Source: a virus (taxonomy: Duplodnaviria; Heunggongvirae; Uroviricota; Caudoviricetes). From it: a stretch of DNA of 8,805 bases. Below, piece by piece: positions 8,079 through 8,805 of this stretch. The position numbers were made by a program, and so were the translations under genes. The stretch is from IMG/VR virus record IMGVR_UViG_2671180809_000010; one strand, 5' to 3'. The notes beneath the pieces were generated by a model that was not told where the DNA came from, made no database searches, and saw only the letters and a program-made list of their open reading frames with translations. The stretch's first letter is position 1; the number at the start of each line of letters is the position of its first letter.

Positions 8079-8231
8079 ATGATTTACACTAATCAGCTTC
8101 GTTACAGTGGCAAAGATGGCATCTATTTCCACTTAAGAGACAATGTAGATGCCTTCTTAACCTTATCAGCAACTGAAAACATGGAATTTGATAGCCCTAT
8201 GCAGGTGACTACACAGAACATGCAATTATGA
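8079..8231 (+). CDS. Short ORF, 50 aa, probably the 5' part of a frame-interrupted tail gene
   Basis: AAGGAG at 8068-8073 before ATG 8079. It ends at TGA 8229-8231 and overlaps the start of a long open frame in the +1 phase. Confidence 0.4.
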
Positions 8232-8805
8232 AGGAAGCTTATTATTAACTCGTCAGGGTCAATTAGTAGAAAACTTCATTGACACTCTGGAAAACTGGCG
8301 TGACCAGAAGCAGATTATTTCTGTTATCTGTAAAGATGGAATTAAAATTGACGATTCCATTATTACCAACTTTAAAGCCTCTAAAGATGTTACTATCTCT
8401 AACGGTCTTCGTATCCAGCTAACTTTTCAGGAAATTAACTTTAAAGCAATCGTAGGTCAAACTGATATTTCAGCAGCCACTGGCAAAACGGCTACCACAA
8501 ATGACGGTGGTGTGACCAGTAAGAAGAATGCAGGTAACGTGACCACTGAACGCAATAACGCGCCTATGCTATCGTGCAAAGAGTTAATGAATATTAGCGA
8601 TGTATCCGGTTACGCTCCAGCTATCAGAAATGATATTCTCGATGCTCAGATTAAATGTAATAAGGCTTGGAAGCTGGACTATTCAGACTTAACAGAAGCT
8701 GAAAAAACCAACGTCACCAATGCTAATAGTAACGCTGGTCGAGTAGCTTCAAAGCTTAAAAAGTACTCAGTGTGCAAAATGGCATCTGAATCGATCGCAG
8801 TTTGG
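8209..8805 (+). CDS. Long open frame without a start codon, running off the window end; probable tail protein downstream of the tape measure gene
   Basis: No stop codon in this frame from 8209 to 8805 (199 codons), which is unlikely by chance in AT-rich DNA. No ATG, GTG or TTG in this frame before 8512. Translation is ...[72 protein letters not shown]... Confidence 0.45.

Follow-up and report, generated by a model that had tools for sequence, protein, structure and literature searches.

A 74-nt deletion has very probably made a pseudogene of the phage-type tail tube initiator gene in a Shigella sonnei chromosomal island

Pseudogenes and genome decay driven by insertion sequences (IS) are typical of Shigella genomes. 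Programmed ribosomal frameshifts, for their part, occur near phage tape measure genes, as in the lambda G/GT-type chaperones. The gene considered here has a described relative in the tube initiator of the felixounavirus Bas63, gp18, which cryo-EM has resolved as a hexamer with the tail-tube-protein fold and a C-terminal extension of about 100 residues (PMC12609058). The Bas63 protein rests on the hub trimer, where it adapts C3 to C6 symmetry beside the C-terminus of the tape measure protein (PMC12609058). Interference with tail assembly by proteins of mobile elements is also a known defence strategy (PMC11364771).

The window (the whole stretch of 8,805 nt analysed here) matches E. coli chromosomes over its entire length and is not a phage genome. 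The gene that starts at 8079 occupies the same position as gp18 of Bas63 and other Felix O1-like phages (PDB 9NDY; PF21821; phrog_3721), directly after the tape measure gene, and has the same domain. Intact alleles from related chromosomal islands share about 77-82% protein identity with the Felix O1-like phage tube initiator. At the nucleotide level, the match of the window to these phages is limited to 8103-8538 (about 93% identity), with phage garuso additionally matching in pieces back to 5721, which reaches the 5' end of the tape measure gene. Unlike phage gp18, the window copy is without residues 50-74, is frame-broken, and has lost its last 6 codons to an IS; it lies in a bacterial chromosomal island, whereas the gp18 gene lies in a phage genome. 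The junction of the two genes differs as well, with a 156-nt spacer containing a hairpin between tape measure and tube initiator in the island copies and overlapping genes in the phage. The locus is almost certainly a deletion pseudogene of a phage tail tube initiator. Its features, all on the + strand, are as follows.

5742-7922, +: tape measure gene, intact, 726 aa (PF20155 TMP_3, TIGR02675, phrog_4036)
8067-8072, +: Shine-Dalgarno sequence AAGGAG, read from the sequence and kept in intact island copies
8079-8231, +: 5' fragment of the putative tube-initiator pseudogene (translation; phrog_3721 positions 1-51; aligns to residues 1-49 of P0001, the nearest homologous protein)
8209-8226, +: six non-native codons (LHRTCN) heading the long frame, a +1 reading of native codons 44-49
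8226-8227, +: deletion junction CAAT/TATG, placed by DNA alignments; the last 2 nt of codon 50 and codons 51-74 are gone
8227-8772, +: 3' fragment of the putative tube-initiator pseudogene (native codons 75-256 of 262; phrog_3721 positions 76-258)
8766-8772, +: left copy of the target-site duplication CTCAGTG; these 7 nt are repeated in S. sonnei locus L009 where the IS ends on the right
8773-8805, +: IS21-family left end (ISSso4-like), starting TGCAAAATGGCATC; homology to intact islands ends at 8772

From its start codon onward, the locus reads as two overlapping frames. The Shine-Dalgarno sequence is followed by a 6-nt spacer and ATG 8079, and the frame opened by this ATG translates into 50 aa before TGA 8229-8231, in agreement with the sequence-only reading, which had described a well-initiated ORF at 8079-8231 ending at TGA. 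The same coordinates were recovered for the other frame, said to open 23 bp before that stop and to stay open for at least 199 codons to the window end: in the +1 frame, TGA 8206-8208 is followed by 199 open codons from 8209 onward, and the overlap with the short ORF is 23 nt. Further claims of that reading were borne out, namely that the long frame lacks a start for about 100 codons (the first ATG, GTG or TTG is GTG 8512, codon 102, and the first ATG is 8566, codon 120), that the overlap at 8209-8231 contains no homopolymer run (none of 4 or more bases occurs in 8195-8245, and 8151-8245 has only AAAA at 8176), and that the gene follows a tape measure gene, the ORF at 5742-7922 being identified as such by PF20155, TIGR02675, and phrog_4036. 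Calculated from base composition, a 199-codon open frame would arise by chance with P of about 9e-7, and the lack of a start codon across 119 codons of the long frame with P of about 0.002. Since both values are low, the openness of the long frame is not due to chance, and the two frames derive from a single real gene. Positions 8773-8805, the final 11 codons of the long frame, belong to the left end of the IS21-family element and not to the gene, and in S. sonnei loci this frame meets a stop 5 codons past the window end.

Judged by its homologues, the broken gene is a tail tube initiator of the Dit_like kind, a protein whose hexamer sits on the baseplate hub and seeds the tail tube from there. 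Intact, it is one continuous ORF of 254-265 aa (774-798 nt). Homologous proteins number 1135 at E<=1e-5, most of those listed being 254-263 aa long, and the nearest, P0001, is 97% identical. The intact homologue matches PF21821 (Dit_like) with 73 bits over residues 30-146, and the intact allele matches PDB 9ndy_A, "Tube initiator protein (gp018)," at E=1e-115. Both parts of the window copy match phrog_3721 (4.6e-26 for the short ORF and 1.5e-74 for the long frame). Against PF21821, the long frame scores 33.3 bits (cut-off 24.2) over profile positions 65-118 of 127 only, and a search of the short ORF with the same profile detected nothing. As PF21821 spans residues 30-146, the deletion of residues 50-74 falls inside the domain; with these residues deleted and the frame broken, a complete continuous Dit_like domain is absent from the window copy. 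The structural importance of residues 50-74 rests on this Pfam domain span and on the published description, an AlphaFold2 model computed for intact P0001 from 32 aligned sequences (pLDDT 39.7) being too poor to map the deleted strands. Gene order agrees with the assignment, the tube-initiator start at 8079 lying downstream of the tape measure gene (5742-7922) in the same order as in phage HK3.

Measured against all intact homologues checked, among them those of more than 200 Felix O1-like phages, of complete E. coli genomes (at least 70), and of Citrobacter, the window is exactly 74 nt short at 8226/8227, which amounts to 24 codons + 2 nt. Nucleotide alignment with the phage HK3 gene leaves one clean 74-nt gap between essentially identical flanks, and the same single gap, again with near-identical flanks, is present against four E. 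coli island copies. The spans of the E. coli genome matches differ by this amount (897 nt of subject against 823 nt of query; 195 nt against 121 nt). Alignment to homologues, proposed earlier as a way of locating the exact break, placed it in this 74-nt gap at 8226/8227. The length bookkeeping is consistent with this position: 148 nt of native sequence (49 codons + 1 nt) precede the junction, 148 + 74 gives 222 nt or 74 codons, and the first codon past the junction is codon 75, TAT. The two frames match phrog_3721 with a hole between them (positions 1-51 for the short ORF and 76-258 for the long frame), and residues 50-74 (S50-G74) are absent in the protein alignment with an intact homologue. 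Because 74 is of the form 3n+2, the remaining 182 native codons fall into the +1 frame. The 5' fragment consists of native codons 1-49 and then a Leu (TTA 8226-8228) and a stop (TGA 8229-8231), both created by the junction itself; the 3' fragment is +1 relative to the start codon and has no start codon of its own. A search for traces of a repeat-mediated deletion found no direct repeat of 4 nt or more where the lost segment begins and ends in the closest intact allele.

Of the options left by the sequence-only reading, a genuine disabling mutation was right as to the disabling lesion; what the homologue alignment reveals, however, is a 74-nt deletion in place of a 1-nt shift. With 74 nt missing, the gene cannot be restored by correcting one base, which removes the alternative of a 1-nt difference. 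Two separate genes with a missed start, the other arrangement that had been allowed for, are contradicted by the match of both frames to one family and by intact homologues that are single ORFs. The deletion is judged to be recent relative to the divergence of the alleles because no further indel is found against the closest intact allele and the two fragments together differ from it by 21 synonymous and 5 non-synonymous codons. The 3' fragment, which is 97% identical to P0001, accounts for 16 synonymous and 3 non-synonymous of these differences.

A sequencing or assembly artefact, with an intact gene in the true genome, would be in keeping with the erroneous frame breaks that draft assemblies often have and with the odd 534-bp tandem duplication of the window, which is not in related assemblies. 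However, a clean 74-nt loss without flanking repeats is atypical of a base-calling or collapse error, and a 25-nt string spanning the junction is present in 10/10 retrieved S. sonnei loci and in 0/12 other loci. These ten identical junctions come from independently assembled genomes of several sequencing projects, multi-Mb contigs included. In a protein look-up, the exact 50-aa product, whose recorded names include "hypothetical protein FORC11_1046 [Shigella sonnei]," was located on at least 1000 contigs labelled S. sonnei (2281 index blocks). An artefact is therefore extremely improbable, and the indel error that had been proposed for this position is at odds with the same junction and product records. 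Elsewhere, a 48-nt probe, for which a match had to include a junction-spanning 28-mer, was not found in 5426 complete E. coli genomes, the E. coli matches listed all carrying the extra 74 nt. The junction probe was likewise found neither in viral contigs nor in species-representative genomes, a set in which Shigella is not a separate species. A metagenome scan for the junction returned two matches, both rejected as chance 21-mers in unrelated genes. Over positions 1137-8805, the window and S. sonnei locus L009 disagree at a single base. Set against the retrieved S. sonnei loci, the window has an extra 534-bp tandem duplication upstream, and its exact source strain is not among them. A junction shared by S. 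sonnei assemblies and missing from the 12 other loci and the complete E. coli genomes indicates that the deletion is an inherited S. sonnei mutation, not a sequencing or assembly error. The lesion is apparently fixed or near-fixed in S. sonnei among the contigs read (26 in the look-up), its distribution being judged from the contigs returned by the index.

A programmed +1 (or -2) ribosomal frameshift within 8209-8231, fusing the 50-aa ORF to the long frame in a functional tail protein, would account for the 23-nt overlap, the good upstream Shine-Dalgarno sequence and ATG, and a downstream frame that is start-less for 101 codons, and such events are known near tape measure genes (the lambda G/GT-type chaperones). 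The superficial likeness to described sites (prfB for +1; dnaX and lambda G/GT-type for -1) extends to the overlapping frames by the tape measure gene and the start-less downstream frame, but the break in the window has no slippery sequence, stimulator, or conserved layout, and a fusion across it does not rebuild the homologue. Every intact homologue, whether from phages, E. coli, E. albertii, or Citrobacter, is one ORF, so the two-frame layout is not conserved, and the 3n+2 deletion fully accounts for the offset. No X_XXY_YYZ heptamer occurs in 8151-8245, a CUU_UGA_C-like (prfB-like) site is lacking as well, and the zero-frame codons CAA TTA TGA allow no +1 re-pairing. The local RNA fold is no better than that of shuffled sequences (71 nt, 8195-8265: -7.5 kcal/mol against a shuffle mean of -10.9, z = +1.37) and gives no stimulator, and a scan of the window against Rfam returned no family. 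Any fusion would be without 25 residues (50-74) of the Dit-like/tube domain and without the 6 C-terminal residues. Programmed frameshifting, one of the options originally offered, is thus barely conceivable here, its layout being unconserved and its slippery motif and stimulatory structure missing. The companion claim, that the long frame could be translated only by shifting from the short ORF, finds no support either, given single-ORF homologues, the lack of motif and structure, and a shifted product without 25 core residues. Very improbable, too, is a continuing function of the fragments, either as the 50-aa peptide or as a product initiated at a non-canonical or internal codon (GTG 8512, ATG 8566), kept for a new role, for instance in interference with the tail assembly of Felix O1-like phages that infect the cell. 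The Shine-Dalgarno sequence and ATG of the 5' fragment are intact, almost no non-synonymous change separates the fragments from intact alleles, and mobile-element proteins that interfere with tail assembly are known as a defence (PMC11364771). Nevertheless, a recent deletion predicts low divergence equally well, and no suitably spaced Shine-Dalgarno-like sequence precedes any in-frame near-cognate codon. The ISSso4 insertion, IS1 in some strains, and the disrupted recombinase form a pattern of decay and not of retention, and other, independent and different truncations of the gene exist.

In the history that we propose for the pseudogene, a single 74-nt deletion at 8226/8227 would have removed residues 50-74 of the tube-like domain and, through its 3n+2 length, pushed the 182 native codons downstream into the +1 frame. 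Translation from the intact Shine-Dalgarno sequence and ATG would now give 49 native residues and Leu before the stop, as read from the sequence, and the downstream frame would be open only as a recently coding frame that is not yet eroded. Without an initiation signal, the downstream 182 codons are most likely not translated, and we infer that the locus most likely yields no functional tube initiator; the 50-aa peptide may nonetheless be made, as may a little product from the downstream frame. The insertion of ISSso4, earlier or later than the deletion, would have taken the last six codons. Such a lesion would fit the general IS-driven decay of the S. sonnei island. It resembles the IS-driven decay known from Shigella in being an apparently lineage-fixed disabling deletion beside multiple IS (ISSso4, IS3-family, IS1) in one element, and compared with ordinary Shigella pseudogenes it shows nothing unusual, its only particular point being a size of 74 nt without a flanking repeat. 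The gene is an ordinary pseudogene, and the tempting "frameshift after a tape measure gene" turns out to be ordinary gene decay. For annotators, the gain lies in the exact lesions, a 74-nt deletion at 8226/8227 and an ISSso4 insertion at 8773, and in a caution. Where a short, well-initiated ORF is overlapped by a long frame that lacks a start, the cause can be a 3n+2 deletion of any size, so the alignment with homologues should be checked before recoding or a 1-nt error is invoked.

The second lesion is the insertion of the IS21-family element 7 codons before the tube-initiator stop, an event that deprives the gene of this stop and of the 6 sense codons ahead of it (NPNKKY). Locus L009 contains the ISSso4-like element at 10688-13340, followed by the right copy of CTCAGTG and then the missing tail of the gene, AACCCTAACAAAAAATACTAA; the duplication of CTCAGTG and the gene tail past the right end identify the event as a simple insertion. 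Positions 8765-8805 match the DNA that lies upstream of istA in ISSso4, both on S. sonnei plasmids and in E. coli O177:H21, and istA/istB come next in the S. sonnei loci. On S. sonnei pINV plasmids, this IS is preceded by a comparable target, ACTCAGGC, a hint that ISSso4 may prefer certain targets. Other damage is present in the same island: an IS3-family element splits the adjoining serine-recombinase gene in S. sonnei, IS1 lies in the 3' part of the tube-initiator remnant in 8/10 of the S. sonnei loci shown (L011-L018), and the Dam-like methylase reads NLPY in S. sonnei where its relatives have NPPY.

Across the island copies, the recombinase gene and the 3' end of the tube-initiator gene have been damaged repeatedly and independently by IS (L003, L005, L008, L009-L018). 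S. sonnei copies have been hit by ISSso4, by an IS3-family element, and, in some strains, by IS1; ISSso4 is also the IS in O177:H21, an IS3-family element that in TUM1881, and ISEc12 that in E47 and RM9088. In other public assemblies (P0129, P0151, P0154, P0155), the tube-initiator gene is independently frameshifted or truncated at different positions, a sign that chromosomal copies decay recurrently or that their sequences contain errors.

The context of the pseudogene may matter more than the pseudogene itself. Comparison of the architecture across L002, L005, L008, and L019-L022 delineates an island of about 10-11 kb that is inserted between ymdF and wrbA and has a small resolvase-type gene at one end and a large, convergent serine recombinase gene at the other. 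The gene order is conserved in the family: the resolvase-type gene is followed by a Dam-like methylase gene, an HTH/replication-initiator-like gene (phrog_8102/428), several small ORFs, an ORF of 235-243 aa, an ORF of about 70 aa, the tape measure gene, the tube initiator gene, and the convergent serine recombinase gene. Three integration sites are represented: ymdF/wrbA, the inside of a yecE/DUF72 gene (TUM1881), and a position beside yciI (E. coli and Citrobacter freundii). Among complete E. coli genomes, 534/5426 (about 10%) match the window. The tape measure and the tube initiator are the only virion genes of the island family. A PADLOC scan of all island proteins returned no match, and the literature searched yielded no account of a comparable satellite or island. 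The serine-recombinase islands, present in E. coli, Shigella, E. albertii, and Citrobacter, apparently form an undescribed family.

A comparison with phage satellites suggests what such islands could do. Like the PICIs and P4-like satellites that carry Tai elements (PMC11364771), the island is small and integrase-bounded, and it likewise has a replication-initiator-like gene and proteins related to a lytic phage tail. Unlike those satellites, it is described here by its architecture, and neither a Tai nor a PADLOC match was obtained; in place of capsid-redirecting or small-terminase genes, it has those for a tape measure and a tube initiator, and the window copy is degraded. That the islands are satellites of Felix O1-like phages, or defence elements interfering with tail assembly, with the S. 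sonnei copy as a dead member, is a tentative and on balance doubtful proposal. Were it true, the islands could provide the two proteins on which the nucleation of the tail tube depends, or poison them. With its signs of recent exchange with lytic Felix O1-like phages, the island family would be a candidate for a new satellite or defence element.

The exact tape measure protein of the window is on record as "tape measure protein [Shigella sonnei]." Compared with the tape measure protein (TMP) of the Felix O1-like phage HK3, the island protein is 30% identical overall, with conserved N- and C-termini. Its N-terminal segment of about 45 aa is near-identical to that of the phage, a central core at about residues 300-400 is kept, and so is the C-terminal LLSSSYPEEE; in Bas63, the C-terminus of the tape measure contacts the hub (PMC12609058). 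From their conservation, the kept segments are suggested to be retained interaction surfaces. The spacer at 7923-8078 (156 nt) is conserved in island copies and contains a hairpin with an 8-bp stem (arms 8020-8027 and 8052-8059), and a scan of 7850-8300 found no consensus promoter or terminator. Downstream of this spacer, the island tube initiators begin with MIY(S/T)NQ(L/I)RY..., an N-terminus that differs from the Felix O1-like phage version.

Farther upstream, the ORF at 4654-5412 (likely start 4702) has a 236-aa orthologue that RefSeq calls "transposase." This 236-aa ORF had no match in Pfam, NCBIfam, PHROG, PADLOC, PDB, or a phage tblastn search, so the PGAP/RefSeq label looks unsupported. 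The island ORFs of 236/252 aa and 68 aa showed no similarity to Felix O1-like tail chaperones. A 26-nt direct repeat with 85% identity (3652-3677 and 8109-8134) codes for GKDDIYLHL in the small ORF at 3547-3774 and for GKDGIYFHL at the N-terminus of the tube initiator; it may be due to chance, as the two ORFs are otherwise dissimilar. Lastly, the 534-bp tandem duplication (50-583 and 584-1117, with a divergent tract to 1136) takes in the 3' two-thirds of the Dam-like methyltransferase gene and the spacer downstream of it, and is missing from the four S. sonnei loci compared (L009, L010, L011, L016). Copy A is the single copy of the S. sonnei loci, with the catalytic motif NLPY, and copy B is a divergent allele with NPPY and about 20 mostly synonymous differences that is without the 5' end of the gene. 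The duplication may be genuine, the product of unequal recombination of two alleles of the island, or it may be a chimera of the assembly.
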